Assembly: GCA_005772825.1 (NCBI GenBank)
Contig: SXIP01000291.1
Location: 1 to 30,545 of the forward strand
DNA from: Methylococcaceae bacterium
GTDB lineage: Bacteria; Pseudomonadota; Gammaproteobacteria; Methylococcales; Methylomonadaceae
Length of the DNA stretch: 30,545 bases
Direction: 5' to 3'
This document shows, piece by piece, positions 5,507-30,415 of the stretch. Under the pieces are notes generated by a model. That model was not told where the DNA came from and ran no database searches. It worked only from the letters and a program-made list of their open reading frames with translations. The position numbers were made by a program, and so were the translations under genes. The stretch's first letter is position 1. Every line of letters starts with the position of its first letter.

Positions 5507-5584
5507 GGTTAATAATTTCCCCTTTGTTAAAAAACGCTCTTAAATCCACCATCTTGTAAATTGGATAAAAACAGCTCTCCCTCA

Positions 5585-9321: not shown

Positions 9322-9570
9322 AATGCTCTCCTTAAAATAAAAGCGACAAAGCCTCCACACGTCGTCGGCTCCCGACTTTATGAGCTGCGGGCAAGCGGGC
9401 TTTACGGTTTGCGCACAGGTCAGACCCGGACGGAAGGCGGTGTCCGTGTTGACGTTGGGTATATGCAGATCGGGCTGGCTATCCATGCTTGTTCGATCTA
9501 CAGCCACCTTCCGTCGGGAGGTTTGTCTATGCCCTTGCGGGCTGGATTTTAAGCTACCGTTTCAGGGTAG

Positions 9571-9644
9571 GTTCACTAGCCGGGGTCGAACCGGCGACAG
9601 ACTGATGATGAGTCAGTTGCTCTACCATACTGAGCTATAGTGTA
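9571..9644 (-). tRNA. tRNA-like gene, 74 nt, anticodon CAT (Met/Ile2-like). It has an A2:A71 acceptor mismatch and C at position 37.
   Basis: Manual fold: acceptor TACACTA/TAGTGAA, D-arm GCTC-AGTATGGTA-GAGC, anticodon arm ACTGA-CTCATCA-TCAGT, variable loop CTGTC, T-arm GCCGG-TTCGACC-CCGGC. It was not checked with tRNAscan. Confidence 0.5.
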
Positions 9645-9646
9645 TG

Positions 9647-9717
9647 TGCCGCCAGTTGGGATCGAACCAACGACAGGCCCGAGGTCGGGCTGCTCTACCG
9701 GACTGAGCTATGGCGGC
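9647..9717 (-). ncRNA. tRNA-like RNA, 71 nt. It has canonical acceptor, D and T arms, but the anticodon arm collapses to a 5-bp stem with a 4-nt loop, so it has no usable anticodon.
   Basis: Manual fold: GCCGCCA-TA-GCTC-AGTCCGGTA-GAGC-A-GCCCG-ACCT-CGGGC-CTGTC-GTTGG-TTCGATC-CCAAC-TGGCGGC-A. No register gives a 7-nt loop. It lies 2 nt from the preceding tRNA-like gene, is on the same strand as rtcB, and starts 106 nt downstream of it. Confidence 0.45.
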
Positions 9718-11321: not shown

Positions 11322-12917
11322 ATGAATACGGTGGTTATCGGCATACTGGGTTCGCGTCTCGATCACGCAGGTTTCGGCAAAAGGCGCTTTGAACGTTGGC
11401 GGCCCAGCGTTTCCTTACTGATGCACGGCAGTTTGCGGGTCGATGAATTTGTCTTGATCCATCATCCCGATGAAGCCGAGCTTGCCGGTATCACGATGCG
11501 CGATATGCGGGCTGTTTCCGGGCAGACCCTGATAAGGCCTTATCAGGTTGATTATGCCGATCCCTGGGATTTTGAGCAGGTTTACAGCCAGTTGCATGAT
11601 TTCACGCGCAGTTATACGTTTGATCCGGAACAAAACGACTATTACGTGCATATCACTACCGGTACTCATGTCGCGCAAATCTGTCTGTATTTGTTGACCG
11701 AAGCGAACTATATTCCCGGCAAACTGCTGCAAACCTCGCCGAGCAAAGCCGGTATCCAGGGCACTTATCGGATGATCGACCTGGACCTGTCGCGTTATGA
11801 CCAGATCGCGTCGCGGTTCAAGCGGGAAGCGCAGGACGGCATTGCCTATCTGAAAAGCGGCATCGAAACCCGCAACACGGCATTCAACGAGCTGATTTCA
11901 CAAGTGGAGCAGGTATCCATCAAATCATCGGCGCCGATGTTATTGACCGGCCCGACCGGTGCCGGTAAGTCGCGTCTCGCCAAACGCATTTACGAGCTGA
12001 AAAAACAGCGCGGGCAATTGACCGGCAAACTGGTCGAAGTGAATTGCGCTACCTTGCGCGGCGATAATGCCATGTCCGCCTTATTCGGCCATGTCAAAGG
12101 CGCTTTTACCGGCGCGTTCAGCACCCGCACGGGCTTATTGCGCGAGGCGCACAAGGGTTTGTTATTTCTCGATGAAATCGGTGAATTGGGTTTGGATGAA
12201 CAGGCGATGCTGCTGCGTGCGATAGAGGATAAGGTATTCATGCCGTTGGGCGCCGACAACGAGATTGGCAGTGACTTTCAGTTGATAGTCGGGACCAATC
12301 GTGACCTGTTTGAACAGGTGCGGCTGGGACGTTTTCGAGAAGACTTGCTCGCGCGCATCAATTTATGGACCTACGAATTGCCTTCCTTGAAGCAACGCAT
12401 GGAAGATTTTGAGCCCAATCTGGAACATGAATTACAGCAATTCACCTTCCAGGCGAATCACAAAGTCAGTTTCAACAAAGCGGCGCGTGAGCGCTATCTT
12501 GCTTTCGCCTACTCGCCGCAAGCGCTATGGCGGGCAAACTTCCGCGATTTGAATTCCAGCGTCACCCGTATGGCGACCCTGGCGACCGGCGGACGGATTA
12601 CCGAAGAAATCGTCGCGGGCGAAATGGTGCGTTTGCAGTACGCCTGGTCAGGATTTATAGATCAGACACCTGTTGTAATCGATACATTGGCCGGGCTGTT
12701 GCCGCCGCAAACCTTGGCTGAGCTTGATTTGTTCGACCGGATGCAGCTTGCCGAGGTCGTGAGGCTGTGCAGGGAAAGCCGCAGTCTGGCTGAAGCAGGG
12801 CGCCGATTATTTAATGTCAGCCGCACCCAAAAAGCCAGCAGCAACGATTCCCATCGCCTCAAGCAATATTTACAACGCTTTGGCCTGGTTTTTCAGGATG
12901 TATGTAAGGGTGGTTGA
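11322..12917 (+). CDS. rtcR: Sigma-54-dependent transcriptional activator RtcR (N-terminal CARF domain, AAA+ sigma-54 interaction domain, C-terminal HTH), 531 aa
   Basis: N-terminus MNTVVIGILGSRLDHAGFGKRR…HITTGTHVAQICLYLL is CARF-like. Walker A is LLTGPTGAGKSRLA. GAFTGA is present, with LLFLDEIGEL as Walker B. The gene is divergent from rtcB. Confidence 0.9.
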   Translation: MNTVVIGILGSRLDHAGFGKRRFERWRPSVSLLMHGSLRVDEFVLIHHPDEAELAGITMRDMRAVSGQTLIRPYQVDYADPWDFEQVYSQLHDFTRSYTFDPEQNDYYVHITTGTHVAQICLYLLTEANYIPGKLLQTSPSKAGIQGTYRMIDLDLSRYDQIASRFKREAQDGIAYLKSGIETRNTAFNELISQVEQVSIKSSAPMLLTGPTGAGKSRLAKRIYELKKQRGQLTGKLVEVNCATLRGDNAMSALFGHVKGAFTGAFSTRTGLLREAHKGLLFLDEIGELGLDEQAMLLRAIEDKVFMPLGADNEIGSDFQLIVGTNRDLFEQVRLGRFREDLLARINLWTYELPSLKQRMEDFEPNLEHELQQFTFQANHKVSFNKAARERYLAFAYSPQALWRANFRDLNSSVTRMATLATGGRITEEIVAGEMVRLQYAWSGFIDQTPVVIDTLAGLLPPQTLAELDLFDRMQLAEVVRLCRESRSLAEAGRRLFNVSRTQKASSNDSHRLKQYLQRFGLVFQDVCKGG

Positions 12918-17522: not shown

Positions 17523-18124
17523 TTTTTTATTATTTTTAAAGTCAGGTTAGTAACAGGCGCTTTGCCGATGCTTAACTTGAGCGCTTCGGCCTTATAACGC
17601 AAATGCAAAACAACGGCGTTTAAAATCCAGTTGCCTTCCGGCACATTGTCGATCAGGAAATCGCCGGGGCGGTCCAAGGTCTGAAAATGCCGGTTCGGTA
17701 GAATGATGATCCTGCCTTCCATCGTCTTGTGAACCGAGCAGTAATAATTAACAATTCCTGTGTTTTTAAAGGTTTGCTCCAATATGGAACCTTTTTCTCC
17801 GAGACCTAAATCAAAGCTCGCTACCGGGCTCAATGAAAAAATGTTATGGTCGATTTCCTTGCTTTCATCGTTGCTCCATTGCACTTTGTCCCCGGCAGAT
17901 ATAACGGTTAACGGTGCATGAAACGCCGTTTCCTTTTGCGAAACTTTATGTACCTGTTGCGATTGGACGGATTTGACGGCGCCCTCCGCTTGTAGGTAAA
18001 CAACCACTTGCTTCACTTGCTGAGGCGCGTCAATATGCCCTGCAATAGATTGAGCGGCCAGGGAGGGTGACATTGAAAAATAAGCCAAACCGGCCAGTAA
18101 AAAATATAAACAGCGTTTCTTCAT
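17519..18124 (-). CDS. Periplasmic cupredoxin-like protein, a putative type-1 copper-site protein (201 aa)
   Basis: Signal peptide, then the C-terminal motif YYCSVHKTMEG (C-x2-H-x2-M). Upstream residues such as SISAGDKVQW resemble plastocyanin/azurin-type ligand sets. The fold is assigned from the motif only. Confidence 0.5.
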   Translation of the reverse strand: MKKRCLYFLLAGLAYFSMSPSLAAQSIAGHIDAPQQVKQVVVYLQAEGAVKSVQSQQVHKVSQKETAFHAPLTVISAGDKVQWSNDESKEIDHNIFSLSPVASFDLGLGEKGSILEQTFKNTGIVNYYCSVHKTMEGRIIILPNRHFQTLDRPGDFLIDNVPEGNWILNAVVLHLRYKAEALKLSIGKAPVTNLTLKIIKK

Positions 18125-18165
18125 CGGGGTGTTATTCTGGTTAAGTCAGTCCATGAGCTTATCTT

Positions 18166-20055
18166 ATGAACCTTAATAAAAAGATATTTATTACCTTCTT
18201 TATCTCAGTGACGGGTTTATTATGCACCACTCTGTATCTAATTGAAACGCAAGCCGAACAACATGAAATAGAACGTATCGTCGCCGCTTTGGATAGTGCG
18301 CAAGCCCGGTTTCAGCAGGATTTGGAGGTTAAACAAAAACAGATTCGGACGCTGACCCATGTAATTACCGCCGATCAAAAATTCCGTTCTTTTTTAGCGC
18401 AAATCAAAGACAATTTTTATCCCTTTGTTGAAGAGATCGGCAAAGATACCGAAGCCGATTTTGTTTATATGCTCGATGACGAATCGGCTGTCAGGGCTGT
18501 TTATGCGAAAAACGACATTGGCAAACCGCCTCTGGAAAACGATTTTTCAAGCATTGACGTCCAGGGCAGCCTGGATTCGGGATTAATGTCGTCGCAAATG
18601 GTCAGCCTTAATGACGGTTTATACAGCAACCATTTAATTCCATTGAAAGAAAACCTGAACGATGATTATGCGGTCGGCTTGATTATCGTCTGTAATCAGA
18701 TCAATGACGGCTGGATAGCCAAATTACTGACGCAAGATCATAGTCTTCTGGCGGTATTTTTTAATGGGGAGCAAATAGTCGCCAAAAATACCGCCCCGGA
18801 TATGGCCGCCGCTATTTTGGGCCGCCAACAAGACATTTTGAATAACGGAAGGTTTAGCTGGAACAACGAGCGCTATATCGCCAAACAAGTATTGTTCGAT
18901 ACACAGGGTCGACAGGCCGGTTATATACTCGGCGCGAACCTGGATCAGGCGTTACGTGCTTTTAAACAATTGCAGCAACAGGTTTTAATGACGGGGGGCG
19001 GTATTCTCTGTCTCGGCGCATTGTTGTTTATGTTGATTTCGCAGCGCATCACCCGGCCGTTACGCTTGATCACTAAAGGCACCTTGGAAATAAAGCAAGG
19101 TAATTACCGGCACCGCATCAAGTATCGAAATTCCGATGAGGTCGGACAATTAGCCGATGCGTTTAATATCATGGCCGGTGGTTTGCAGGAAAAAGAGCTG
19201 ATTCGCAGCACCTTTAATAAATATGTCGATCCCGTTATTGTCAGCGAATTGCTCAGCCAACCGGATAAATTAAGGCTTGGCGGCGAACGAAAAGAGCAGG
19301 CGGTGTTATTCAGCGATATCGCCGGATTTACCGATTTCAGCGAAAAGTTGCCCGCCGAGGCGCTGATTAAAATTCTCAATGACTATCTATCGGCGATGAC
19401 AGTCGAAATCAGTCGGCAAAACGGTATCCTGGATAAATTTATCGGCGACGCCATCATGGCCTTCTGGAGTCCTGAACTTTGCAACGGCGGGCATGCGCTT
19501 TACGCGTGCCGGTCCGCGCTGGCCATGCAGCAAAAATTGCGGCAATTGCGCCCGCTCTGGGTCGCAAGCGGAGCGCCGGAAATTCATGTTCGCATCGGTA
19601 TTGCGACCGGTGAAATGATTGTCGGCAATATCGGCTCGGAGCAGGCGCGCAGTTATACCTGTATCGGTGACAAGGTCAATTACAGTTCCCGTCTTGAAGG
19701 CCTGAATAAGTACTATGGAACTCAGATCATGATCGACCGGCAAACGGCGACTGAAATAACCGGCTTTGTTATCAGGGAACTCGATACAGTACGCGTGAAA
19801 GGCAGGGAAGCGGGCGAGAGCATTTACGAATTACTCGGAGAAGCGGGTACAGTCGATGACGCGCTGCTGGAAAAAATCAACCGCTATCAACAGGCGCTGG
19901 CATTATACAGGAAGGCTGACTTTAGCAATGCGGCGCAGATTTTTTCATCGTTGAACGGTGATGCGCCCAGCCGCACGATGTTAAAACGATGTATTCATCT
20001 GCAACAACACACACCTGAAAACTGGGACGGTGTCCATTCGATGCAGGATAAATAA
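18166..20055 (+). CDS. Membrane-anchored class III adenylate/guanylate cyclase with a periplasmic sensor domain, TM, HAMP and CHD (629 aa)
   Basis: HAMP (…ITRPLRLITKGTLEIKQGNY…DEVGQLADAFNIMAGGL). CHD motifs are AVLFSDIAGFTDFSE, FIGDAIMAFW and VRIGIATGEMIVGNIGS. Confidence 0.9.
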   Translation: MNLNKKIFITFFISVTGLLCTTLYLIETQAEQHEIERIVAALDSAQARFQQDLEVKQKQIRTLTHVITADQKFRSFLAQIKDNFYPFVEEIGKDTEADFVYMLDDESAVRAVYAKNDIGKPPLENDFSSIDVQGSLDSGLMSSQMVSLNDGLYSNHLIPLKENLNDDYAVGLIIVCNQINDGWIAKLLTQDHSLLAVFFNGEQIVAKNTAPDMAAAILGRQQDILNNGRFSWNNERYIAKQVLFDTQGRQAGYILGANLDQALRAFKQLQQQVLMTGGGILCLGALLFMLISQRITRPLRLITKGTLEIKQGNYRHRIKYRNSDEVGQLADAFNIMAGGLQEKELIRSTFNKYVDPVIVSELLSQPDKLRLGGERKEQAVLFSDIAGFTDFSEKLPAEALIKILNDYLSAMTVEISRQNGILDKFIGDAIMAFWSPELCNGGHALYACRSALAMQQKLRQLRPLWVASGAPEIHVRIGIATGEMIVGNIGSEQARSYTCIGDKVNYSSRLEGLNKYYGTQIMIDRQTATEITGFVIRELDTVRVKGREAGESIYELLGEAGTVDDALLEKINRYQQALALYRKADFSNAAQIFSSLNGDAPSRTMLKRCIHLQQHTPENWDGVHSMQDK

Positions 20056-20102
20056 GTCATCTCAAGCAGGTACCAGGTTGATTCCATAAGATTTTTGATC
20101 AT

Positions 20103-20462
20103 CTATGTCAAAAACCTGTATCGGATAACTAATGTGCCGGAATTTATGTTTACAGGTTTGTAGCGAATTTCTGCTTGATCGGCATACCAGTCGCCGCTCC
20201 ATTCAAAATCTACGACATCCTTGAGTGCTTGGGTTTTATAAGGTTCGCCATTTAATATCAGGGAGATGCTTGCCTCTCCGTCCAAATTTCCGCTTCCTGA
20301 AATATGGATGCTGTAAACGTATCCGGGCTTGTGCGTATTTTTCAGGATGATTGTTTGTTCCTTATGGACATCGGCGACTTGAACAGAATCATCGTAATTC
20401 GCACACGCGGTCACGAGTAACGAAAAAACGATGGTTCCAATATACAGCGTAGCTTTTCGCAT
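20103..20462 (-). CDS. Small lipoprotein, hypothetical (119 aa)
   Basis: Signal peptide plus lipobox LLVTAC. Convergent with the cyclase gene. Confidence 0.5.
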   Translation of the reverse strand: MRKATLYIGTIVFSLLVTACANYDDSVQVADVHKEQTIILKNTHKPGYVYSIHISGSGNLDGEASISLILNGEPYKTQALKDVVDFEWSGDWYADQAEIRYKPVNINSGTLVIRYRFLT

Positions 20463-20491
20463 CTAATCAGCTATTTTAAAGACTCGGACCT

Positions 20492-22147
20492 TTAGTGTGT
20501 CAACGGATGTGTCGTCAAACTGCCGCGTCCGTCTTCGGTGATTTCATCGTCGCTGATTTTGAAATTACCCAATTTCATAGTCAGGTAGCGGTCGAAATAA
20601 TCTTTCAGGCCTTTTTCTACGGAAGGGTCAAAATCGGGTTTGACAATGTGGGTGGTGCCCCATTTGGTGTGTACCACCTTGCCGTCAACCACGACCAGCT
20701 CGCCGTCTTTAAAGACATAATCCGGCTTTTCAAACATACGCTGGCGGTCGGCGTTGTCGGTGTAAACGGTAATATCCGCCCAGTTTCCGGCGCTTAAACC
20801 GCCACGATCTTTCAGTCCGATCAATTTGGCTGCGCCGGCGCGGGTCATGATGGCGATTTCCTGTAGCGTGTATTCGCGGGTTATCGATGCCAATGTGGTC
20901 ATTTTTTGTGCTTCGGGATGAATGGTCGATAACACGTCATTACGGAAACTTCTGTCCATCAACAAGCGTATCAAATGCGGATAGCTGGTGAAAGGGGCGC
21001 CGTTGGGATGATCGGTGGTCAGGAAAATCCGCCACGGGTCATTGACCAGCAGGAAAGTTTCCAGGCCGATTGCCCATTGCAATGCATTGACGAAATTTTG
21101 ATCTTTATATTTGAACGGCACCACACCGCAACCGGCGTCGCATTCAATATCCATTGTCACCCATTTGTTCGGGCTTGCGTGTTTATGGTTGGCGTGCTGG
21201 CGCATGTTGTCGCCCGATGCGGTGACGGTTTGCCCGAACAGGATTTGCCCGACATCGATAGTGATGTTTTTATTGTTGTTGACAGCTTCCGCTATTTGCG
21301 CCGCACCGGACGAGAATTTGAAATCGCCCTCGGTGCCGTAGCTGTGGAATTGGATATGGGTCAAGTGCATGGGCAAACCGCCGATACCCTGGATGGTGTC
21401 CAGTGTGGTTTGCACATTGCCGGGCACGCCCAGGTTACAGCCGTGTACATGCAGAGGATGCGCCACGCCGATTTCTTTAACGGCGGTTGCCAGCACTTGC
21501 AGAATCTCTCGCGGAGTTACGCCGTAATGGCTGTTTTGTTCGTCCAGATCGAGCTTGCGCTGGTTGAATTTGAACGCATTAATGCCGCCGGGATTGACGA
21601 CTTTAACGCCTATTGCTTTAGCGGCTTGCATGGTCCAGGCGACATAATCGTTAATGGCTTTCTGGTCTTTTTTAGCCGTCAGCATGCGCAGCAGATAATC
21701 ATCACTGCCGAGCATGACATAACCGCCTTTATCCAGGATCGGAATATCGCCCATTTCCATGTGCGCCTGGCGGGCGTTGATAGGCAATAGCGCGGGTTCA
21801 AAACCGGCGGTATAACCCATTTCTGCATAACGATAGCCGGTTACAAAGGTGCTCGGCATGGCATGACCGCAACCGGATCGACAGATATGGGTGCTGGCGA
21901 CCGGGTCTTGTCTATGGTCTTCCGGCAACAGGGTGCGGGCAATATTACCTTTGCCGCCGCCGATATGCGTGTGCATGTCGATAGCACCGGACATCACGAC
22001 TTTGCCTTTCAGGTCATATTCCTTATCGGGTTTGGCATCGGTGGGCGGGTTGATGATGCGTCCGTCCTGGATGTAAAGGTCTTGCTGAATGCCTGCAATG
22101 CCTGCGGCGGGGTCGTAGATAGTGCCGCCTGTGAGTTTGATTAACAT
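20492..22147 (-). CDS. fhcA: Formylmethanofuran dehydrogenase subunit A-like amidohydrolase (FhcA/FwdA family), 551 aa
   Basis: Size and motifs fit (MLIKLTGGTIYDP…GAIDMHTHIGGGKGN…, the metal-binding HxH of the amidohydrolase superfamily). Family call by recognition. Confidence 0.75.
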   Translation of the reverse strand: MLIKLTGGTIYDPAAGIAGIQQDLYIQDGRIINPPTDAKPDKEYDLKGKVVMSGAIDMHTHIGGGKGNIARTLLPEDHRQDPVASTHICRSGCGHAMPSTFVTGYRYAEMGYTAGFEPALLPINARQAHMEMGDIPILDKGGYVMLGSDDYLLRMLTAKKDQKAINDYVAWTMQAAKAIGVKVVNPGGINAFKFNQRKLDLDEQNSHYGVTPREILQVLATAVKEIGVAHPLHVHGCNLGVPGNVQTTLDTIQGIGGLPMHLTHIQFHSYGTEGDFKFSSGAAQIAEAVNNNKNITIDVGQILFGQTVTASGDNMRQHANHKHASPNKWVTMDIECDAGCGVVPFKYKDQNFVNALQWAIGLETFLLVNDPWRIFLTTDHPNGAPFTSYPHLIRLLMDRSFRNDVLSTIHPEAQKMTTLASITREYTLQEIAIMTRAGAAKLIGLKDRGGLSAGNWADITVYTDNADRQRMFEKPDYVFKDGELVVVDGKVVHTKWGTTHIVKPDFDPSVEKGLKDYFDRYLTMKLGNFKISDDEITEDGRGSLTTHPLTH

Positions 22148-22253
22148 GGGGTTTCCTTAAAAACGGGTTTTATTATTTTGTGTATTAGTCAACTAACTCA
22201 GATGAAAAATAGGGTAATCTCTATACTGAGGAGGTGTATTTGATTTAACATTT

Positions 22254-23516
22254 TTACCTATTAAATTTTGATAAATATCTTGAAAAAACCCATCCTTGCT
22301 TGAATTCATTTGTATCAGAGTCTTGATATTCTATTAAACACCAACTTCTTTTTTTATCTATAACCTTAACTATTTTCCCAATATATAATTCATCAATGAT
22401 TTCTGCCTTAGTGCTTTCATAATTTCGCACAAATAAAATTTTTGTAGCAACAAAATGATGATCTAGTAAAAATTGAGAATTGTAATTTTCATTCGCCCTC
22501 GAAATAATTTCATTTTTTACTTCTCTTGTACTTAGGTTAGGAAATTGATTCCATTGCTCTTCCCAATATGAGGTGGTTACGTTTGCAAAAATTGCTATGA
22601 AGTAAGGGATAAATAAATAGATTAGTACAGCTTTTATAATTGGATTGCTTAAGTTTTTGAGTTGCTCTATAAAACCATTTATAGCATCAATATAAGATTC
22701 GCAATTAATAGAAAAATCATTGATGTATTCAATGATTTCTTCTTGGCTTACTGACTCATTGCCGACAGAAAAAGTACCATCCTCATTGATGTGAACATTA
22801 GCAACTAACTCTGTATGATTTTGAGCGAGACCCTGGAATTCAAGTGTGCTTTCGAATATTTTTCTTAGTCCCAACATATTATCTAAGGGATAAGCTTCAT
22901 AACTTTTCATTTGCTCTTGAAGTCGGGAAATTGGGCTAACTGGTTGGGACAACTCGTGTAGCTTCTTCGCTTGACCTAAAATGCCGCCCATAAAATTGGC
23001 TTCATAATTTTTCATTTGCTCTTGAAGTTGGGAAATTGGGCTAACTGGTTGGGACAACTCGTGTAGCTTCTTCGCTTGACCTAAGATGCCGCCCATAAAA
23101 TTGGCTTCATAACTTTTCATTTGCTCTTGAAGTCGGGAAATTGGGCTAACTGGTTGGGACAACTCGTGTAGCTTCTTCGCTTGACCTAAAATGCCGCCCA
23201 TAAAATTGGCTTCATAATTTTTCATTTGATCTTGAAGTCGGGAAATCGAGCTAACTGGTTGGGTTATCTCGCATAGCTTTTTCAATTGCTCTTGGGTCTT
23301 TAGCAATGGATTTGTATCAAAAAGATTCTTAATTTGCCCTTGCGATTTCATAATTTCAAGCATTTGGTCAAAAGAATCCCTTTTGTCTTTCTGCAATAAC
23401 TCTATTTCTAATTGAGTCAGCATCCTTTTTTGAATTGATGATATAGCGAGCTTCTGACTCGGTAAGGCTGTCGAATCCGTAGCCAAAGAAGTCAATCCAC
23501 CAAGGTTCGAGTTCAT
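22254..23516 (-). CDS. Hypothetical membrane protein with four 35-aa tandem repeats and a C-terminal SH3-like domain. The real start is probably the internal ATG at about 23363, since the track start overlaps the upstream gene by 149 nt.
   Basis: The repeat LHELSQPVSPISRLQEQMKSYEANFMGGILGQAKK occurs three times, plus one degenerate copy. A TM helix IIKAVLIYLFIPYFIAIF follows. The tail is GKIVKVIDKKRSWCLIEYQDSDTNEFKQGWVFSRYL. The DNA is AT-rich. Confidence 0.6.
   Translation of the reverse strand: MNSNLGGLTSLATDSTALPSQKLAISSIQKRMLTQLEIELLQKDKRDSFDQMLEIMKSQGQIKNLFDTNPLLKTQEQLKKLCEITQPVSSISRLQDQMKNYEANFMGGILGQAKKLHELSQPVSPISRLQEQMKSYEANFMGGILGQAKKLHELSQPVSPISQLQEQMKNYEANFMGGILGQAKKLHELSQPVSPISRLQEQMKSYEAYPLDNMLGLRKIFESTLEFQGLAQNHTELVANVHINEDGTFSVGNESVSQEEIIEYINDFSINCESYIDAINGFIEQLKNLSNPIIKAVLIYLFIPYFIAIFANVTTSYWEEQWNQFPNLSTREVKNEIISRANENYNSQFLLDHHFVATKILFVRNYESTKAEIIDELYIGKIVKVIDKKRSWCLIEYQDSDTNEFKQGWVFSRYLSKFNR
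22893..23312. repeat. Four tandem copies of a 105-bp repeat. The first three are near-identical.
   Basis: Period 105 measured from the ggcttcat anchors at 22894, 22999, 23104 and 23209. The repeat is coding, so it is not CRISPR. Confidence 0.85.
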
Positions 23517-24108
23517 TATAGTTGCCTCTTAAGTTCGTTAGCGCATCTGTTGAAATAGCCAAAACAGATGAATAATTTTTGCCTGTTAAGGTAGTTGCCA
23601 ATAGAGTGTTTATACCAAATTGCCCGATATAACCTTTCAAATTAGCTAAGGTCCCACCTTGCGTTAAAGTGTCATCAAGAATGATGGCATCATCTGCTTT
23701 GCTACTCGGTATTCCAGCAAAGGGTGGCGGAAACGCTAATCTGGAAAATCCGTCTGTCCCCGTTCGGCTCACTTTAGCCGCTTGTACAATATTTAATTCA
23801 ATGGTCAAATTAAGTTTAGCGGCAATCACCAGCGCATAAGCTAACGGAATTCGGTTAATGCTAATGGCTTCTTCTGCATGAACAGGAATAAGTAACGGTT
23901 TTTTATCGCCTATCAAGTCTGCAATTTTTTGAATGGCAGCATCATTCACTAAATCACTGGCAAGTGTTAATGCTGCTTCAATTCCACCTGCTTTTGCTGC
24001 TTCATAACTAGGATGGTTTTTAGCAGAACCCATTGCAGCCTGTAATATAACGGATGGAAAATTCTTTTCCCATACTTGGCGATACGGTGCAATGGGTTTA
24101 TTAGGCAT
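23368..24108 (-). CDS. Phosphoribosyltransferase (PRTase type I)-like domain protein (247 aa from the ATG at 24108; the track start at 24150 is TTG)
   Basis: PRPP-binding-like motif DDAIILDDTLTQGGTL. AT-rich. Confidence 0.5.
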   Translation of the reverse strand: MPNKPIAPYRQVWEKNFPSVILQAAMGSAKNHPSYEAAKAGGIEAALTLASDLVNDAAIQKIADLIGDKKPLLIPVHAEEAISINRIPLAYALVIAAKLNLTIELNIVQAAKVSRTGTDGFSRLAFPPPFAGIPSSKADDAIILDDTLTQGGTLANLKGYIGQFGINTLLATTLTGKNYSSVLAISTDALTNLRGNYNELEPWWIDFFGYGFDSLTESEARYIINSKKDADSIRNRVIAERQKGFF

Positions 24109-24209
24109 TTTGGATTTTTGTTTAAATTTAATATTCTGCCTAACTATCAAAAGCTAATCCGAATTACCTAACCTAATTCCATCACTAAGCATATCCCAGG
24201 ATGGGGGTA

Positions 24210-24395
24210 TCAAGTCTTATAATGGTTCAATAAAGTTGCAGGATCAAAATTGGCCGGCACAGCGGGCCGGGTGCTTTTTAACTGACCAAACCCCATTGGG
24301 ATTTGCATCTTACAGTCTGCGTGGATGCCTAGCTGCTTACCGATGGTTTGGGGTGGGCTGGCTTGAGTTTTGCCGCTGACAGATTTATTTTGCAT
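24210..24395 (-). CDS. Small hypothetical protein (61 aa)
   Basis: Good AGGAAA Shine-Dalgarno 4 nt upstream of the ATG. No homology is recognisable. Confidence 0.3.
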   Translation of the reverse strand: MQNKSVSGKTQASPPQTIGKQLGIHADCKMQIPMGFGQLKSTRPAVPANFDPATLLNHYKT

Positions 24396-24452
24396 GGACT
24401 TTCCTGTTTGGTAGCAAATTAGTTTTTCAAAAATTTTGTAGGCTTATCAAGC

Positions 24453-25070
24453 TCAATCCTCCGCCCAAGTATCAAAAATCTCATTCACGTTCATTTCCAA
24501 CTCCGGAAACAAATACGGCACTGCAATATCATCGTTGGTGTACATGTGTTTCAATTCATATTTTTGCTGAGCATTCAATATGAATTGGTGAATGGTTTGA
24601 TACGCTGGAAAAACCAGCCAATATTCCGTTACACCGCTTTCTTGATAGAGCTCGTATTTGATATGGACTTCCCGTTTGGAATTCCCTTTGGAGAGTATTT
24701 CAATAATCCAATCGGGTGCGCCGTTGCAGCCTTGTTTATCGAGCTTTTCTTCCGGCTGACAAATGACGCATAAATCCGGTTGTACGACAGTTTGTATTTC
24801 TTGACTTTTTAAAATGGATTTTTTACGGTCATATAGTCGGACATCAAAAGGCGCGGCATAAACGCGGCATTTTTTGTGTTTAAAAAAAACTGATAAATAG
24901 CCCATTAAATTAGTGGATATGTCTTGATGCCTGACGTTGGGCGCAGGCGACATAACCATGACCTTGCCCTTGATTAATTCCACGGCTTCTTTTATTTGCC
25001 ACGTCAAATAATCGGCATAACTGTAACTTTGATTTAAATCCAGTTGACTCAGATCAAGGATTTTGGGCAT
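24453..25070 (-). CDS. Uma2-family (DUF820) putative restriction-endonuclease-like protein, 205 aa
   Basis: Family-typical features: YSYADYLTW near the N-terminus, acidic catalytic core …PDLCVI…APDWIIEILS…, and C-terminal EYWLV. A GAGGA Shine-Dalgarno lies 5 nt upstream. The gene starts 35 nt after the fhcB-like stop. Confidence 0.7.
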   Translation of the reverse strand: MPKILDLSQLDLNQSYSYADYLTWQIKEAVELIKGKVMVMSPAPNVRHQDISTNLMGYLSVFFKHKKCRVYAAPFDVRLYDRKKSILKSQEIQTVVQPDLCVICQPEEKLDKQGCNGAPDWIIEILSKGNSKREVHIKYELYQESGVTEYWLVFPAYQTIHQFILNAQQKYELKHMYTNDDIAVPYLFPELEMNVNEIFDTWAED

Positions 25071-25105
25071 AAGGTCCTCAATTTTGCAGGTAGGGTTACG
25101 TATCG

Positions 25106-26374
25106 CTAACTCAACCTACATTGTTGTTCTATTGCATTTAACACGTCCGCCGTACTCGGTAGACCTGAGTCGCGTAATTTTTTCAAGCGGATGGCGACGA
25201 CGTTATCCATGCGATAGGCCAAACCGGCATGGTCGATACCGGGGGTGCCGACTGGAATAAATACATCGGGCTCTTTGGCAAATGTCATCCCGGAACGGCC
25301 GATGACAACAGTCGGCACACTGGTTAAGGGCGGTACTGATTTGGCATTAAACGCCTGCACCCAAACCAGGGCATCGGCTTCGTTATTTGCCAGCAGGAAA
25401 TTGCTGTCATTCAGGAAAGGATCGTATTCGGGATAGCCGCGACTGAAACGGGTGCGTGCCGGATAACCGCTCGTCCAGCCGCAGACTTGGTTAGCCGTCT
25501 GATCGCCTTCTTTGCCCGCTAACGGCAGGCCGGAACAACGGGTGTTTTGATCATTGATGTCTTTTATCATTTCCGAGAAGGTCTGCACCGTTAGTTCAGC
25601 TTGGGCGTAAGCGAGCGCGCCTGCGGCCCAGGTGACTACACCATATTTCGCGGCTTTTAATTTATCGGCAATCGCCTGTAAATCAGCGACAGCAATGCCG
25701 CAGACCGACGTTGCTCGTATCGGTTGGTTTTTCACCAGGGCTCTTAATACGGTGACCACATCAGGCAAATCTTCGGTTGCACAGGCGAACACTTGTGCTT
25801 TTTGACCGTTAGGTGATGTCGATGCATTGCCGGAAGGCGCTTTGCCTAAATAAATGACTTCACGGTTAGCGGTGTCATCGAGAAACATCGCTTCTTTATT
25901 CCAGAGATAGCGCTCAAAAAAGCGCGGCGCAAAGGCTTCCAGATCGGTGCCGATAACCAGCAACAAATCACAGCGGTTTTTAACTTCCGCCAGCGTGGTA
26001 TTCATCCACCCGGAATCCTGCAAGGCCAGGAAATTATTGCGCGCACCGCTAAAATTGATATTATCGATGACGGCGCCGGATCGATCCGCCAGGGCTAGTA
26101 ATGCCCGCATGCCGTTGACATCGGTTGCACAGCCGCCGATCACCGGCAGTCTGGTGTCTTTTAATAGGGCGGCGGCAGCGGCTATCGCGGTATCCAGATC
26201 AACTTCTTTGCCATCGACCCTGGGGCTGGTGTCGGTAATGGCTTGCTCAAATGCCGGTGTGTTGACCGCGCAGCCGTTTTCAATCACTTTAAGCGATACG
26301 CCATCGACCCTGATGGTTAGATCATCCGTGCCTATACCGCAAAAAGGACTGGGTACTTCAGTAATTTCAGTCAT
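25106..26374 (-). CDS. fhcB: Formylmethanofuran dehydrogenase subunit B-like protein (FhcB/FwdB family), 422 aa
   Basis: N-terminus MTEITEVPSPFCGIGTDDL… and overall length fit FwdB/FhcB. Family call by recognition and less certain than fhcA. Confidence 0.65.
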   Translation of the reverse strand: MTEITEVPSPFCGIGTDDLTIRVDGVSLKVIENGCAVNTPAFEQAITDTSPRVDGKEVDLDTAIAAAAALLKDTRLPVIGGCATDVNGMRALLALADRSGAVIDNINFSGARNNFLALQDSGWMNTTLAEVKNRCDLLLVIGTDLEAFAPRFFERYLWNKEAMFLDDTANREVIYLGKAPSGNASTSPNGQKAQVFACATEDLPDVVTVLRALVKNQPIRATSVCGIAVADLQAIADKLKAAKYGVVTWAAGALAYAQAELTVQTFSEMIKDINDQNTRCSGLPLAGKEGDQTANQVCGWTSGYPARTRFSRGYPEYDPFLNDSNFLLANNEADALVWVQAFNAKSVPPLTSVPTVVIGRSGMTFAKEPDVFIPVGTPGIDHAGLAYRMDNVVAIRLKKLRDSGLPSTADVLNAIEQQCRLS

Positions 26375-26683
26375 TCAACTGTCCCTTCAGTTAGTCATTC
26401 TAAATTCCAGTTATTGTGACAGATGACCCCGAATACACGCAATCAATTCATCTGGGTTTTGATATATTTTGCAGGCGTGAAGAGCTGTTTGTTTACTAAA
26501 AACGGGGTATTAAAGTCGAGAATATTTTCGGTCCGCTATTTATGCACTGTGTTTTGCATTTATAGACGGGTTGTTAAACACGTTGTAGAGATCGGATTGA
26601 CCGGTACTATAAGGGGTGACGGGTTATCGGGAAATATAGCGAGAAGAACGGTATTGCAGGAATAGGGGCGGGGAGTATCGGTT

Positions 26684-26720
26684 GAAGCGTAGAGACTCTT
26701 GCCTGATGGTCTCTACGCTT
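26684..26720. promoter_or_regulatory. Perfect 13-bp inverted repeat gaagcgtagagac…gtctctacgcttc with a 12-nt loop, immediately 3' of the STAS gene
   Basis: Read directly. No T-run follows on the minus strand, so the terminator role is uncertain. Confidence 0.3.
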
Positions 26721-26738
26721 CAAAGAGAATTTTAATAA

Positions 26739-27917
26739 TTAAACGACATATTTGTTATAGACCATTTGCAGCATTTGCACTTCGCCTGCTTCCGGTTTGT
26801 TCCAGCCTTGAATCTGGATGTCTTTCAATATTTGTTGTCCCTGATCATCGTTTTGCATGCCCATTAAACTGTCGATCAGTGCCTGGCTTTCTTCTTTCAA
26901 ATGAGGCGCAACACAAAACAGGTGGCAGGCAAAGTCGGTCTGACTTTCATCCACTTTCCGAACATTATCCCGGCTGAAAGAAGACAAGCCTTCGTATGTT
27001 TTCTTTAGCATAAAGACTAGATCGCATTTTTTTCGGATAAGTGTCTGTAATGCCTTGATTTCATTGCCGGCGAAATCAAAGGTGAATTTTGCCGAATCCA
27101 GCCCGTTTTCATCACATAAAAATCGTCCCAATAAGTAGACAAAACTGTCTTTAGTTGCTGTGCCGACCGTAACGCCTTCATACTCTTTCAAGCTGCGCGT
27201 TTCATCCGCCCGAGTCAGGATCACCACCTCATCGGCTTCGGCAATAGGGCGCATCACTGGTATGAATCCATACTGCTTGATCATCAGACACGCTTCAAAC
27301 GGTTTTGCAAACAATAAATCGGTTGTATTGCCATTCGGAACATCTATGGATTGTTCGAAATGAATGGCTTTTTTCAATCGGCGTTGCAAATAGGTATTCA
27401 GCAAATACCACCCGGTCAGTTGTTGGCCTGATTGCAGGCTGGCGACAAAATTCAGTTTGTCACCTGCTTCTCGTTTTTCCGGTGCTGATTTGCGTCGCTC
27501 CGGAGTGTCGCGTGGCATTACCCGGCGATCGGGCAGATGTCGGCGATCAGTAAATCGCGGAGGCTCGGGATTGACCGCTGCGACACCGGAGCTGGATTCA
27601 GCACTTTGCCCGTCTGACTTGACGAATCGGCCTAGTCCGGTAATTTTAAACAACATGCTCACCATGCGGTTTAAATTCTGCACTTCTACGCGGATTCTTT
27701 TTCGCTCCCATTCCTCAAACAGCTTTAGCAATAATGACAAACCCATTGAATTGACGCGTTCAACCTTGCTGAAATCGAGTAATACATGAACCTCTGCAGG
27801 CAGTGAAGATAACGATTCCAGTATTTCGTCAGCATGTGCATCAATGGAGCCAATAAAATTATAATGATAGTCTTTTCCAGAGATCTCTTGAATAGTAAAA
27901 GAATTGGTAGTAATCAT
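26739..27917 (-). CDS. STAS-domain (anti-sigma-factor antagonist-like) protein fused to a PhnD/SsuA-like periplasmic-binding-fold domain (392 aa)
   Basis: STAS features are …LLDFSKVERVNSMGLSLLLKL with a candidate phospho-Ser. An Arg/Pro-rich linker follows. The C-terminal domain LNFVASLQSGQQLTGWYLLNTYLQ…GFIPVMRPIAEADEVVILTRADE is a type-2 PBP. There is no signal peptide. The ATG overlaps the stop of the upstream gene (ATGA). Confidence 0.65.
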   Translation of the reverse strand: MITTNSFTIQEISGKDYHYNFIGSIDAHADEILESLSSLPAEVHVLLDFSKVERVNSMGLSLLLKLFEEWERKRIRVEVQNLNRMVSMLFKITGLGRFVKSDGQSAESSSGVAAVNPEPPRFTDRRHLPDRRVMPRDTPERRKSAPEKREAGDKLNFVASLQSGQQLTGWYLLNTYLQRRLKKAIHFEQSIDVPNGNTTDLLFAKPFEACLMIKQYGFIPVMRPIAEADEVVILTRADETRSLKEYEGVTVGTATKDSFVYLLGRFLCDENGLDSAKFTFDFAGNEIKALQTLIRKKCDLVFMLKKTYEGLSSFSRDNVRKVDESQTDFACHLFCVAPHLKEESQALIDSLMGMQNDDQGQQILKDIQIQGWNKPEAGEVQMLQMVYNKYVV

Positions 27918-30415
27918 ATTGATGCCCTGCTTTGGTTGGCCGCTTCATACTCGCTGTGATAAATAAACTGAAGACCGGAATCAACATCCATATCAACAGT
28001 ACCGTTAAGATCCCATAAGGTGGTAACCTGGGTACGCTGTTGGGGACGAACACGAATTTGCAGGTAATCCGACAAACGCCACATCATGTACAAGCCTACC
28101 CCGCCGACGCCCGGTTCAACGCCTTCTTCCATGGCGTGGGCAATATTCCTGAGGAAAACGCCCGGCATTAAAGTTCCCCAGTTATCGGTAATCATCAAGC
28201 CTAAAACGTCTGGGGTCACGGCAATATCAATACGTACTTCTTCATGTGCGGATAATTCTCTGGACTCCCCTTTGTTGTAATAGGCAACACCTTTACCATC
28301 ACGAGGCGCGGCATATAAGCTGTTTTCAGTCATTTCGTCGAGAATGATCATCAAGGCGTCTATATGGTCTTTGGATATATTACCCCGATCCCTCAACCAG
28401 GACTGAATTTCCTCGGTAATAAAAAGCTTGTCTTCTGTATGGGTTAAGTGGAATTGCCGGTATTCGGGTTGTCCGGGAATCAGCACATACAAATCGTCAT
28501 CAGGCGAGTCATGGTGTTGATTGAGTAAATGGTTCCAGCCAATTTTCTTACAAAAATCATCATGTCGAGGCAAAATCCGGCAAATACCGTCCTGACTGAA
28601 ACGGGTCAGCAAATCCGAGTATCCCTGTTCGGCCAGGAATACCACATATTCCTTGGAGATACGTGGAATAGGGTGTTCACCTTGGCGATAAAAGGTTTCC
28701 GAGATACGGATAATATCGCTGACTTCAGTGCTGGCTGCGGCCTGAATCACCCGGTCACTATGGGAAATGACCACAATGGTTACGTCATCGGTGTAAGCGG
28801 TTGTGCGGCAGTGGTTTCTTAATGCCTCCATGACGGTATTACGCAACACTTCGGGTTGCTCGGTATTAACATTGGCGTTGAGTATCGCTTCCAGCCGGTC
28901 ATAACCAAAAGCAACTCCGGCAGGTGATTCTTCTTCAACCAGACCGTCGGTATATAAGAATAAGCGGTCGCCTACTTCGAGGGTTAATTCAATCGCTGTT
29001 TCCAGATAATCCGAATCGGCGCTTTTACCCAAGGGTAAACCGGAGGCTTCCAGCATTTCCCATTTCTGTGCTTGGTGTCGTAACAAATAAGGTAAAACAT
29101 GTCCTGCGTTGGCGAAAGTCAGTTTGCCGGTCCGCGCATCGAGACTCAAACAACCCATAGTCATCAACAGTGATTGTTGAGCGGTGGCGCGCATTGTTTC
29201 ATTTAACGAGTTAAGAATTTCGCTGGGGCTGGTGATGCCTTCATGAATCAGCGGATAAACACCGGCTTTTGCCGCACCCACCATGGTTCCCGCCGCCACG
29301 CCGTGACCGCTGACGTCGCCGATAAGTAAAATACTGTGGTGACCGCCGACTTTATAATAATCATAATAGTCGCCGCCTACCTCACTGGAAGTTAACAGAT
29401 TGGCCAAGCCCTGGACGCCGGGCAAATCAATGATTGGCGGCGGTAAGATGGATCGTTGCAAAACCGCCGCCAAGTTAACTTCGTCTTGCAGACGAGCACT
29501 GATTTTCGCTAATTCGGCGTTTGCCAGATAAACTTTTTGTTCGGCTTCTTTTCGGTCGGTAATATCCAGTCCGGTTGCCAGAAACATCAATGGGGTATGC
29601 GATTTTGAATCTTTGATAGTTGTCGGATTCCATACTACGTTGATTAAATCGCCGGTGCTGATTTGCATGTGGGTTTCAATTTCGTCGGCAAAATCAACGG
29701 CGCCCGACATCATATCCGCGAATAATGCGTGCAGTTCCTGCTGCTCGCCCGTCGGTATAAATTGGTTGAAAAAATCCGTGCCTCTCACTTCCTCTTCCGA
29801 CCACCCGCTACTTTCTTCAGCATGATGGTTAAACAAGGCCACTTTCCCTTCCGCATCAACACCGATAATTAGCGCCTGGGTTGTATTAATGACGTTGTCG
29901 GCAAAGGCCTTTTCCTGGGCCATTTTGACGGCGCTTTCTTTTAACTTGACCACCAGAGGTTGTAACAACAAGACGCCCACTAATACCAATGTCGCGAGCG
30001 ATATACCAAAAAATAAGTGCTGCTTGTTAGCGGTACTGCCCAGCATGAACTCACTTTGTCGTTGATACAACGAGCTTACCAAGCCTATCCCTTCTATCAG
30101 GCGCGGCGTCAGGATAAAAAATAATTTATCCATTTCCGGGTTTGTCAGCTGCAGTTGGTCTGCCGGTAATCGCTGAAGAGCACGGGCAGTTATCATATAA
30201 GTTCGCATCAAGGTATCGAGAGGTTTTTCACCATCAAAATACGCTTGTCTTAATTCCGGGGATAATTGTCCGGAAATATGAACCAGTTCGCCTCGTTCTC
30301 TGATAAATCGATCGCCTTGACTTAACGCAGCGTGAGATTCATCCAGCTGAATCAGGTTGGAAGTGATTTTGGCATTTAATTTCGACAGCTCATTGGCGTC
30401 TTTGATATACGCCAT
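27914..30415 (-). CDS. Multidomain partner-switching regulator: N-terminal region, TM, PAS, PP2C (SpoIIE/RsbU-type) phosphatase and C-terminal RsbW-like GHKL serine kinase (833 aa)
   Basis: PAS (…LIIGVDAEGKVALFNHHAEESSGW…). PP2C (…GGDYYDY…LLIGDVSGHGVAAG…LYTDGL…). GHKL (…LDEMTENSLYAAP…GLMITDNWGTL…GGVGLYMMWRLSDYLQIRV). Confidence 0.85.
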   Translation of the reverse strand: MAYIKDANELSKLNAKITSNLIQLDESHAALSQGDRFIRERGELVHISGQLSPELRQAYFDGEKPLDTLMRTYMITARALQRLPADQLQLTNPEMDKLFFILTPRLIEGIGLVSSLYQRQSEFMLGSTANKQHLFFGISLATLVLVGVLLLQPLVVKLKESAVKMAQEKAFADNVINTTQALIIGVDAEGKVALFNHHAEESSGWSEEEVRGTDFFNQFIPTGEQQELHALFADMMSGAVDFADEIETHMQISTGDLINVVWNPTTIKDSKSHTPLMFLATGLDITDRKEAEQKVYLANAELAKISARLQDEVNLAAVLQRSILPPPIIDLPGVQGLANLLTSSEVGGDYYDYYKVGGHHSILLIGDVSGHGVAAGTMVGAAKAGVYPLIHEGITSPSEILNSLNETMRATAQQSLLMTMGCLSLDARTGKLTFANAGHVLPYLLRHQAQKWEMLEASGLPLGKSADSDYLETAIELTLEVGDRLFLYTDGLVEEESPAGVAFGYDRLEAILNANVNTEQPEVLRNTVMEALRNHCRTTAYTDDVTIVVISHSDRVIQAAASTEVSDIIRISETFYRQGEHPIPRISKEYVVFLAEQGYSDLLTRFSQDGICRILPRHDDFCKKIGWNHLLNQHHDSPDDDLYVLIPGQPEYRQFHLTHTEDKLFITEEIQSWLRDRGNISKDHIDALMIILDEMTENSLYAAPRDGKGVAYYNKGESRELSAHEEVRIDIAVTPDVLGLMITDNWGTLMPGVFLRNIAHAMEEGVEPGVGGVGLYMMWRLSDYLQIRVRPQQRTQVTTLWDLNGTVDMDVDSGLQFIYHSEYEAANQSRASI

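Follow-up and report, generated by a model that had tools for sequence, protein, structure and literature searches.

Probable stepwise accretion of independent selfish and defence-type cassettes between fhcB and fhcA in a Methylococcaceae genome

The window analysed here is a 30,545-nt stretch of contig SXIP01000291.1 (assembly GCA_005772825.1) from a Methylococcaceae bacterium, and all coordinates refer to its forward strand. It contains fhcB and fhcA, which encode subunits B and A of the formyltransferase/hydrolase complex, separated by a 2958-bp spacer with four open reading frames (ORFs) that all lie on the minus strand, co-oriented with the flanking genes. In the direction of transcription these are a gene for a Uma2/DUF820 protein with a PD-(D/E)xK nuclease fold (24453-25070, 205 aa), a 61-aa ORF designated orf61 (24210-24395), a gene for a solo phosphoribosyltransferase (PRTase)-like protein (23368-24108, 246 aa from the best start, the ATG at 24108), and a gene for a bitopic membrane protein made up of repeats, a transmembrane (TM) helix and a bacterial SH3 (SH3b) domain (22254-23363, 369 aa). 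We consider it likely that this insert arose by stepwise, layered accretion of independent selfish or defence-type cassettes at the fhcB-fhcA junction, a hot spot for such genes. On this reading the four genes are neighbours by accretion and not one machine; they demonstrate neither a new kind of element nor a new defence system.

The identity of the flanking genes was clear. The product of the upstream flank, fhcB (25106-26374, minus strand, 422 aa, FwdB-like), matched the NCBIfam equivalog TIGR03129 over residues 7-417 with 358.3 bits against a cut-off of 327.8, and that of the downstream flank, fhcA (20492-22147, minus strand, 551 aa, a FwdA-like amidohydrolase), matched the equivalog TIGR03121 over residues 3-538 with 772.2 bits against a cut-off of 392.75. 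A first-pass annotation, made from the letters of the sequence alone, had named these genes as Fhc/Fwd B and A homologues and had described about 3 kb of clearly AT-richer DNA with four co-oriented ORFs between them, and both descriptions were borne out. The spacer has a GC content of 38.0% compared with 48.6% in the remaining window (window mean 47.5%), and it is the lowest-GC stretch of 2958 bp in the window, the next non-overlapping one being at 44.1%. The GC content at third codon positions (GC3) is 0.31 for both the PRTase gene and the SH3b gene, 0.44 for the Uma2 gene, 0.50 for orf61, 0.55 for fhcB and 0.62 for fhcA, with the lowest values among the other genes of the window at 0.44-0.47. 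The GC anomaly thus resides mainly in the PRTase and SH3b genes.

A scan for FhcA of one genome per GTDB species returned 80 Methylococcales loci with FhcA identities of 87-94%, which include Methylovulum, Methylobacter, Crenothrix, Methyloglobulus, Methylomagnum and many metagenome-assembled genomes (labels beginning with L or P denote compared loci or proteins from related or homologue-bearing genomes). The spacer statistics rest on the 75 loci that carry both fhcB and fhcA, across which fhcB identity is 74-90%. The two genes are 0-18 bp apart in 51 of these loci, 30-157 bp apart in 16 and more than 600 bp apart in 8, in line with the initial proposal that the genes are normally adjacent and that AT-rich DNA was inserted between them. 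This synteny ruled out the insert as the ancestral gene order. Because the compact junction is also found in deep branches, for example in Methylomagnum, it is ancestral, and it is the window that carries an insertion.

The junctions themselves retain traces of this history. At empty sites the ribosome-binding site (RBS) of fhcA encloses the stop codon of fhcB (…GCTTTATAAGGAAACACC-ATG), and approximately 20 nt of this ancestral junction are retained directly upstream of fhcA in every filled site. In the window, comparison with empty sites located the copy of the fhcB-stop/fhcA-RBS junction (…CGTTTTTAAGGAAACCCC-ATG) in the 106-bp fhcA leader (22148-22253, minus strand), which is about 92% identical between the window and L088. 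The same 20 or so nucleotides are duplicated before the first inserted gene, vapB, in L016, L027 and L033. At these loci vapBC is bracketed by direct repeats of about 20-30 nt of the fhcA leader and RBS (…GTTTTAAGGAAACACC-ATG; L016 7320-7360, L027 1183-1220, L033 approximately 5095-5160), so that vapB uses a duplicate of the fhcA translation signal. The C-terminus of FhcB in the window reads …NAIEQQCRLS compared with …NAIEQAL/HAL in empty-site relatives, which indicates that the insertion replaced the last fhcB codons.

An imperfect palindrome of the repetitive extragenic palindromic (REP) type, recognised by eye only, covers the fhcB stop codon of the window (approximately 25085-25125, minus strand). 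Its sequence, GTAGGTTGAGTTAGCGATACGTAACCCTACC, resembles the GTTGGGTTA…TAACCCAAC palindromes of relatives (also by eye), which fill their short fhcB-fhcA spacers and begin the spacers of L005, L009 and L012. Given that the motif stands at the fhcB-proximal edge of several large inserts, it may be a recombination or insertion target. Spacers of 60-157 bp (L005, L011, L015, L029, L035, L052, L061, L066) contain palindromes like REP elements or miniature inverted-repeat transposable elements, or tandem units of about 50 bp. When flanking repeats were sought as marks of mobility, only short AT-rich matches were found in the insert region, such as a 21-nt inverted pair with 81% complementarity (22259-22279 and 24113-24133), and these were treated as chance occurrences. 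By ORF, Pfam and repeat scans, neither the insert nor its immediate surroundings contain further phage genes, an integrase or att-like repeats, and Rfam models matched nothing in the insert and only two tRNAs in the whole window.

Filled sites are scattered among empty ones over several clades in a neighbour-joining tree of FhcB plus FhcA, which has no support values and is indicative only, and the contents of the filled sites differ. L016 and L027 hold vapBC only, an 80-aa AbrB/MazE-type antitoxin gene overlapping the gene of a PIN toxin that has 138 aa in L027 and is shortened to 104 aa in L016. L033 has a truncated Uma2 gene together with vapBC as in L016 and L027, L012 has the Uma2 gene, a fused and decayed vapB-vapC remnant and a RelE-like pair, L003 has the Uma2 gene and a C-terminal fragment of VapC, L014 has the Uma2 gene and a 91-aa ORF, and L055 has an unrelated vapBC. 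The Uma2 and PRTase genes followed by a GIY-YIG-like gene of 119 or 124 aa are found in L009 (Methylocucumis) and in L081-L083. The full four-gene set is present in the window, in L086 and L087, which belong to the population of the window, and in a second lineage represented by L177 and L088, whose proteins are 84% (FhcB), 88% (Uma2), 84% (orf61), 88% (PRTase) and 77% (SH3 module) identical to those of the window. At the nucleotide level the window resembles L009 and L081 across the Uma2 gene, after which similarity resumes only about 10-23 bp before the PRTase start, to end about 10-12 bp past its stop. Since these edges hug the PRTase gene, it is a discrete module, and the gene that follows it is exchangeable.

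Synonymous divergence, given as Nei-Gojobori estimates, separated the insert into layers. Between the window and L009, synonymous substitutions per site (dS) amount to 1.22 for fhcA, 2.1 for fhcB and 1.36 for the Uma2 gene compared with 0.36 for the PRTase gene. Between the window and L177, the proportion of synonymous differences (pS) is 0.60 for fhcB, 0.52 for fhcA and 0.47 for the Uma2 gene compared with 0.26 for orf61, 0.25 for the PRTase gene and 0.23 for the SH3 module. The Uma2 gene is therefore about as diverged as the host genes, and the segment from orf61 to the start of fhcA is three to four times younger. The simplest reading is that the block from orf61 to fhcA moved between related methanotrophs by homologous recombination with the conserved flanks as arms. 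The first-pass annotation had described a horizontally acquired islet; insertion into the operon is upheld by synteny, and the idea of a single unit is not, given the differing age, composition and distribution of its parts.

The fhcB-fhcA site is not the only junction of the operon that has been filled, and in relatives the fhcA-fhcD junction is occupied even more often. Between fhcA and fhcD, 191-4548 bp of extra DNA was found in 34 of 60 related loci (among L001-L080), mostly toxin-antitoxin (TA) modules, and in Methylococcales the fhc genes often do not form one uninterrupted operon. Pfam matches of representative junction ORFs comprised PIN (five families), ParE (three), MazE, YafQ, RelB and HepT/MNT (HepT and its nucleotidyltransferase), and further HicA, AAA_21/AAA_15 with DUF3226, and RelA_SpoT. 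Among the 103 ORFs of at least 50 aa in both junctions, 96 are co-oriented with the operon, a count in which ORF picking slightly favoured the operon strand. With junctions filled in this way across relatives, the insert of the window is one case of a general habit, and we interpret the intercistronic fhc junctions as recurrent landing sites for TA and defence cassettes. A literature search for fhc in combination with toxin-antitoxin returned nothing relevant. As in defence and TA islands, small TA and defence genes of diverse kinds have collected at a single locus, where they are patchily distributed and show decay. It differs from them in that the landing sites are the intercistronic junctions of an essential one-carbon (C1) oxidation operon, that the cassettes are almost always co-oriented, and that an integrase, an attC-like site and a flanking tRNA are all missing here.

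Co-transcription of the insert with the fhc genes by read-through is plausible. No minus-strand terminator-like site was detected between 20000 and 27000 in a promoter and terminator scan, whose counts were at or below the expectation from shuffled sequence and which gives no positive evidence either way. The RBSs of the cassettes themselves, the preserved copy of the fhcA RBS and the lack of a terminator on the coding strand make read-through from the fhc promoter the most likely arrangement, one in which fhcA would not be silenced.

The Uma2 protein matched PF05685 over its full length with 105.3 bits against a cut-off of 27 (E 3e-30), the PADLOC model PDC-S03 with an E value of 1.7e-49 and phrog_16228 with 1.6e-48, and it has a PD-(D/E)xK-type motif (QPD at residue 97, EILSK at residue 124). 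PDC-S03 is, as we understand it, a candidate proposed by computation rather than a defence system that has been validated. A PADLOC search had been suggested as a check on the insert, and the Uma2 protein alone responded to it, with this strong match to a candidate model; the PRTase, the SH3b protein and orf61 gave none. The gene occupies the same site in L003, L009, L012, L014 and L177, as well as in L033, where it is truncated, and L081, where it is internally deleted. With a ratio of nonsynonymous to synonymous divergence (dN/dS) of 0.04-0.11 and a dS of 0.64-1.9, similar to fhcA and fhcB, it appears to be an old resident cassette under strong purifying selection, and the damage in L033 and L081 is as expected for dispensable cassettes. 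A literature search for Uma2 as a defence gene found nothing relevant.

In L016, L027 and L033 the identical genomic site holds intact vapBC pairs, and tblastn aligned orf61 with their antitoxin of 79-80 aa at 42-43% identity (E 2e-13). Two antitoxins from the scanned spacer ORFs, a set that includes the 80-aa protein of L016 and the 75-aa protein of L055, matched MazE_antitoxin; orf61 itself matched no Pfam, NCBIfam or PADLOC model. It lacks the central 'ATVVGDHIELHL…' segment present in the VapB proteins of relatives. As compared with a VapBC type II TA system, in which an intact antitoxin is followed by a PIN toxin, the window keeps only a 61-aa stub with an internal deletion, set against the 80-aa VapB of L016, and the insert holds no PIN ORF. 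By these sequence comparisons we regard orf61 as a decayed AbrB/MazE-type remnant, a dead VapB antitoxin whose partner vapC was lost.

The PRTase is recognisable by fold rather than by sequence family. Its Pfam Pribosyltran match, at 16 bits, stayed below the cut-off, and a search of PDB sequences returned only adenine PRTases at E of about 1. An AlphaFold (AF2) model built from a 39-sequence alignment shows a PRTase fold with a predicted local confidence (pLDDT) of 92 and a predicted template modelling score (pTM) of 0.90. The loop motif for phosphoribosyl pyrophosphate (PRPP), DDTLTQGGT at residues 145-153, is intact (ILDDTLTQGGT), with D145, D146, G152 and T153 invariant in the 39 homologues. 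R10 and R123 are likewise invariant in the alignment, as is an LTESEA motif within the helical extensions. The best solved structure in Foldseek was ComF of H. pylori (7p0h, E 6e-5, 22% identity over 137 columns), followed by adenine and xanthine PRTases, PurR and ShosT (8zvc). The window protein and ComF/ComFC have the PRTase core in common. ComFC handles single-stranded DNA that enters the cell (PMC9005727), and for both proteins a link to the handling of incoming DNA has been suggested. It differs in having no zinc-finger N-terminal domain and no comFA neighbour, in its own N- and C-terminal helical extensions, and in a TM-score of 0.40 over the query.

Altogether 760 homologues were detected, and phrog_22413 matched the protein with an E value of 4.5e-52. 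IMG/VR contained 186 loci with a homologue; in at least 74 of the best 80 of these the PRTase is embedded in MuF fusions or giant polyvalent proteins. The mid-size viral fusions have 405-620 aa with an N-terminal Phage_Mu_F domain (PF04233) in all five tested, and the giant versions have about 2000-3500 aa with LPD38, LPD39, InPase and methyltransferase domains. Identity to both kinds is 44-70%, the closest being L096 at 70%. In Moraxella phage Mcat8 the PRTase domain forms the C-terminus of the gene after the portal gene. An 892-aa MuF-PRTase fusion in L097 (2035-4713), with a PRTase part 66% identical to the window protein, has an apparent intein-like interruption (Intein_splicing, E 2e-5, below the Pfam cut-off). 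Solo copies with 51% identity are found on 168 plasmids. Those of the Acinetobacter plasmids pD36-4 (L246 7007-7720) and pTol5 (L247 6007-6720), also 51% identical, lie between an ImmA/IrrE-SRAP-umuDC cluster and an integrase gene, and such homologues are sometimes annotated as 'recombinase'. Chromosomal solo homologues (64-82% identity) occupy spots rich in TA and defence genes, by a 67-aa ORF, Fic, HEPN-like, DUF4238 and PIN genes near aspS, or between valS and a type II secretion system gene in Beggiatoa. No conserved partner of the PRTase was found in the 80 viral loci, in nine chromosomal or metagenomic loci or on two plasmids.

By homology the protein is a member of a known family, the ComF-like PRTases that occur in polyvalent proteins of phages and plasmids. 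Iyer et al. (2017, J Bacteriol, PMC5512222) described "fusions to the MuF domain" and "related solo PRTase domains", related to ComFC, and called the role of this domain "somewhat enigmatic". Homology, the DD motif, the ComF-like fold, the range over proteobacterial phages and plasmids, and solo versions are shared with that family; the window gene is instead a stand-alone 246-aa version that sits within a metabolic operon of the chromosome, away from any phage or plasmid genes. Three more specific assignments were rejected. ShosT of ShosTA (PMC11961720, PMC9122126) is also a PRTase-fold protein and is used in phage-host conflict, and the fold match to 8zvc is weak (E 1e-3). ShosT has about 420 aa with an extra domain (TMt 0.25), and the window protein gave no ShosT match in PADLOC at E≤0.1 and has no ShosA (DprA-like) neighbour. 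A retron effector was dismissed because there is no reverse transcriptase among the ORFs of 18000-28500, no Rfam msr-msd RNA and no PADLOC match. By the features that Jamet et al. (2017) give for MuF polymorphic toxins, the 246-aa protein contains no PF04233 domain and the downstream gene is not conserved as an immunity ORF among close homologues, so that a MuF toxin was rejected as well.

The membrane protein had been listed as a 420-aa ORF that overlaps the PRTase gene by 149 bp, and its first 50 residues are the out-of-frame 3' end of the PRTase gene. The same phantom ORF is present in L009 and L081, where another gene follows the PRTase gene, and the true start is therefore the ATG 4 bp past the PRTase stop. 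Tandem Repeats Finder identified a repeat array at 22894-23263 (minus strand) with 3.5 copies, a period of 105 bp (35 aa) and 96% matches. One TM helix spans residues 242-262 approximately, and the C-terminus matched SH3_3 (PF08239) with 35.3 bits against a cut-off of 27 (E 1.3e-8). In the AF2 model the SH3 barrel has a pLDDT of about 90, the repeats of about 30, and the juxtamembrane part a moderate value. Foldseek matched only SH3b domains of cell-wall enzymes and endolysins; those of YrvJ, the phiSM101 endolysin and BT_1314 resemble the C-terminal 60 aa. In contrast to SH3b endolysins and NlpC/P60 enzymes, the window protein has no catalytic domain, its SH3b follows a TM helix, and the rest consists of variable repeats. 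The charge distribution around the TM helix, by inspection, suggests a topology with the N-terminus in and the C-terminus out; peptidoglycan binding and a periplasmic location of the SH3b domain are inferred only.

A k-mer-limited search gave 12 relatives of this protein, and a profile of its C-terminal 205 residues retrieved 841 clusters at 50% identity (E≤1e-10) among 1.84 billion representatives. The protein belongs to a widespread uncharacterised family, whose C-terminal module has 185 aa. In all inspected members, 100-400 residues of tandem repeats lead into a small beta/helix module, a single TM helix and an SH3b domain. The repeat unit varies by member in length and sequence, from the 35-mers of the window to about 25-mers in P0126 and 13-mers such as LEPQRRLQEQIDR in many. 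At a dN/dS of 0.42 (against L088 and L177) the protein is less constrained than the PRTase and Uma2. L086 and L087 are 99.9-100% identical to the window elsewhere and have exactly 210 bp, or two repeat units, less in the counterparts of the array (L086 7263-7442, L087 618-797), and copy number also differs between L177 and L088 of the sister lineage. These differences could be contingency-type variation or a collapse in short-read assembly. A tblastn search of GenBank phages with the SH3 module gave no match, and phrog_23259 matched it weakly. Across 71 loci no conserved partner emerged, the downstream genes of 201 aa (L176) and 202 aa (L094) being unrelated.

Several considerations weigh against layered accretion. 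To our knowledge, the PRTase family, the SH3b family and Uma2 are all without a known biochemical function. Co-transcription has only a lack of predicted signals in its favour, from a scan whose counts are no higher than in shuffled sequence. Patchiness rests on a simple neighbour-joining tree, and the flanking genes may themselves have recombined. A third-position AT bias may partly deflate the dS of the PRTase and SH3b genes; orf61, which is not AT-rich, shows an equally low value, but it has only 39 synonymous sites. Lastly, the PRTase and SH3b genes are 4 bp apart, have equal GC3 values and travel together in two lineages, which also fits a functional pair.

That last point leads to the main alternative, in which the PRTase and the membrane protein form a true two-gene conflict module, a PRPP-dependent enzyme controlled by or signalling to a peptidoglycan-anchored partner, as in abortive infection or superinfection exclusion, with Uma2 and the VapB stub as bystanders. 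Its appeal comes from the short gap between the PRTase stop and the SH3b start, the shared GC3 of 0.31, and linkage with similarly low synonymous divergence in two lineages that share just 84% identity in FhcB. Both proteins have phage-encoded relatives (phrog_22413 and phrog_23259), and a PRTase-fold toxin, ShosT, already works in defence (PMC11961720). The membrane module might also serve variable effectors: PIN_12 is fused N-terminally to it in a metagenomic protein (P0268, 632 aa), and in Woeseia oceani (CP016268, L176 6001-8610) a PIN_12 gene lies two genes downstream of the module gene, a weak hint that the module is able to work with enzymes. The wider distribution of the two families speaks against such a module. 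The pair is confined to the lineage of the window and its sister: a PRTase gene lies near an SH3-family gene in only one of 69 metagenomic loci, which is the L177 sister lineage itself, and an SH3b gene beside the PRTase in none of the 80 viral loci. The suggestion in the first-pass annotation that PRTase and repeat/SH3 partner resemble a small defence module is not supported by these counts. In addition, PRTases 87-88% identical to that of the window are followed instead by the GIY-YIG-like gene, with nucleotide similarity to those loci ending right at the PRTase stop; the 191 neighbouring ORFs of the SH3 family fall into 157 families with no recurrent partner; and PADLOC matched neither protein. 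We hold a two-gene module to be unlikely.

A broader proposal, which we regard as quite improbable and offer as speculation, would make the repeat/TM/SH3b family a modular peptidoglycan-anchored partner of interchangeable cytoplasmic enzymes, the phage-type PRTase here and PIN_12, fused or nearby, elsewhere. It would constitute a new envelope-linked class of anti-phage or anti-plasmid systems, with the hypervariable, copy-number-polymorphic repeat arm as the specificity element. Separately, methanotrophs may use the intercistronic junctions of fhc, a highly expressed operon, as a platform dedicated to the expression of promoterless cassettes.

The PRTase/SH3b block could also be what is left of a degenerating prophage or integrative element: a head gene of the MuF-PRTase type from which the MuF part has gone, and beside it a phage membrane protein, neither with a current function for the cell. 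The preponderance of MuF and polyvalent virion proteins among the best viral homologues, the position of the Mcat8 domain after the portal gene, the neighbouring vapB, clearly a pseudogene, and the damaged Uma2 genes of L033 and L081 agree with such an origin. Against this, both ORFs are intact in three independent assemblies and under purifying selection, with a dN/dS of 0.12-0.20 for the PRTase and the value of 0.42 given above for the SH3b protein, no further phage gene or integration mark accompanies them, and solo PRTases of the same clade are common in chromosomes as well as on plasmids. We judge a functionless remnant very unlikely. A toxin role for the PRTase, with the membrane protein as the matching immunity or antitoxin component, is hardly credible. 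Although MuF proteins often carry a C-terminal toxin domain followed by a small immunity gene (PMC5576092), the site accumulates TA modules, and ShosT is a PRTase fold capable of toxicity, PRTases 81-89% identical have unrelated downstream genes (GIY-YIG-like, a 67-aa ORF, a 188-aa ORF), whereas the immunity gene of a toxin would be expected to stay with it; immunity proteins are typically small and cytoplasmic, unlike a bitopic SH3b protein of 369 aa; and the SH3 family occurs overwhelmingly without a PRTase.

Under layered accretion, the order of events would have been as follows. At the outset fhcB and fhcA would have abutted, the fhcB stop lying within the fhcA RBS. A vapBC pair and the Uma2 gene would then have settled at the junction, and vapBC would have decayed to the 61-aa VapB stub. 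Much later, the solo phage-type PRTase and the repeat/TM/SH3b block would have arrived, a block probably exchanged among related methanotrophs by homologous recombination via the Uma2 and fhcA flanks. The cassettes, which have no recognisable promoter of their own, would be read through from the fhc promoter without silencing fhcA. As for the products, Uma2 would be a PD-(D/E)xK nuclease, as its family suggests. The PRTase would bind PRPP and belong to the ComF-like enzymes that phages and plasmids package, or inject, within MuF and polyvalent proteins. Around DNA entry its target is probably a nucleotide, a base or a DNA end, and it would serve here as a factor in conflict between elements. 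The membrane protein would be anchored in the inner membrane, with its SH3b domain on periplasmic peptidoglycan and its fast-evolving repeat arm in the cytoplasm, and may work alone, for example as an envelope-associated exclusion or sensor protein.

If so, a central C1-oxidation operon of methanotrophs tolerates and repeatedly gathers selfish and defence cassettes in its intercistronic junctions, from TA pairs and nucleases to a phage-derived PRTase and a membrane protein. Anyone who annotates or engineers Methylococcales fhc operons should be warned by this, and the insert also provides a small natural example of conflict genes that lack a recognisable promoter and are probably carried along by transcription of the host operon. 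Attention is further drawn to two widespread families without an assigned biochemical function, the solo polyvalent-type PRTase and the repeat/TM/SH3b protein, the latter with a repeat number that varies within a population; their compact and probably well-expressed context would suit experiments.

The surroundings of the fhcB-fhcA pair are peculiar to this lineage. The outer flanks (26739-30415 and 18166-20462), which encode a STAS/phosphonate-binding fusion, an 833-aa PAS-SpoIIE phosphatase, a 119-aa lipoprotein-like ORF and a HAMP-cyclase, are common to none of the 80 related fhc loci, and the pair has therefore been relocated in the lineage of the window. Directly downstream of fhcA lie the 119-aa ORF and then the HAMP-cyclase gene, in convergent orientation. 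In Methylococcales relatives the genes of the complex are arranged as fhcBADC. As the first-pass annotation had noted, fhcC and fhcD are absent from the window, in which tblastn found no match to either. We rejected this absence as a special feature, since fhcD is likewise missing within 8 kb of fhcA in at least 11 related loci, and for the same reason fhcC and fhcD are probably located elsewhere in the genome.

Two other loci of the window deserve mention. Three tandem paralogues of 620, 608 and 652 aa with LamG-like and FG-GAP domains (1699-7543, minus strand) have a GC content of 0.37-0.45 in their 5' halves and 0.50-0.57 in their 3' halves, which results in a periodic GC profile. Genes for tRNA-Arg(CCU) and tRNA-Met(CAU) stand back to back (9570-9717, minus strand) directly downstream of rtcB (9824-11029), which together with rtcR (11322-12917) makes up an RtcR/RtcB RNA-repair locus without rtcA.

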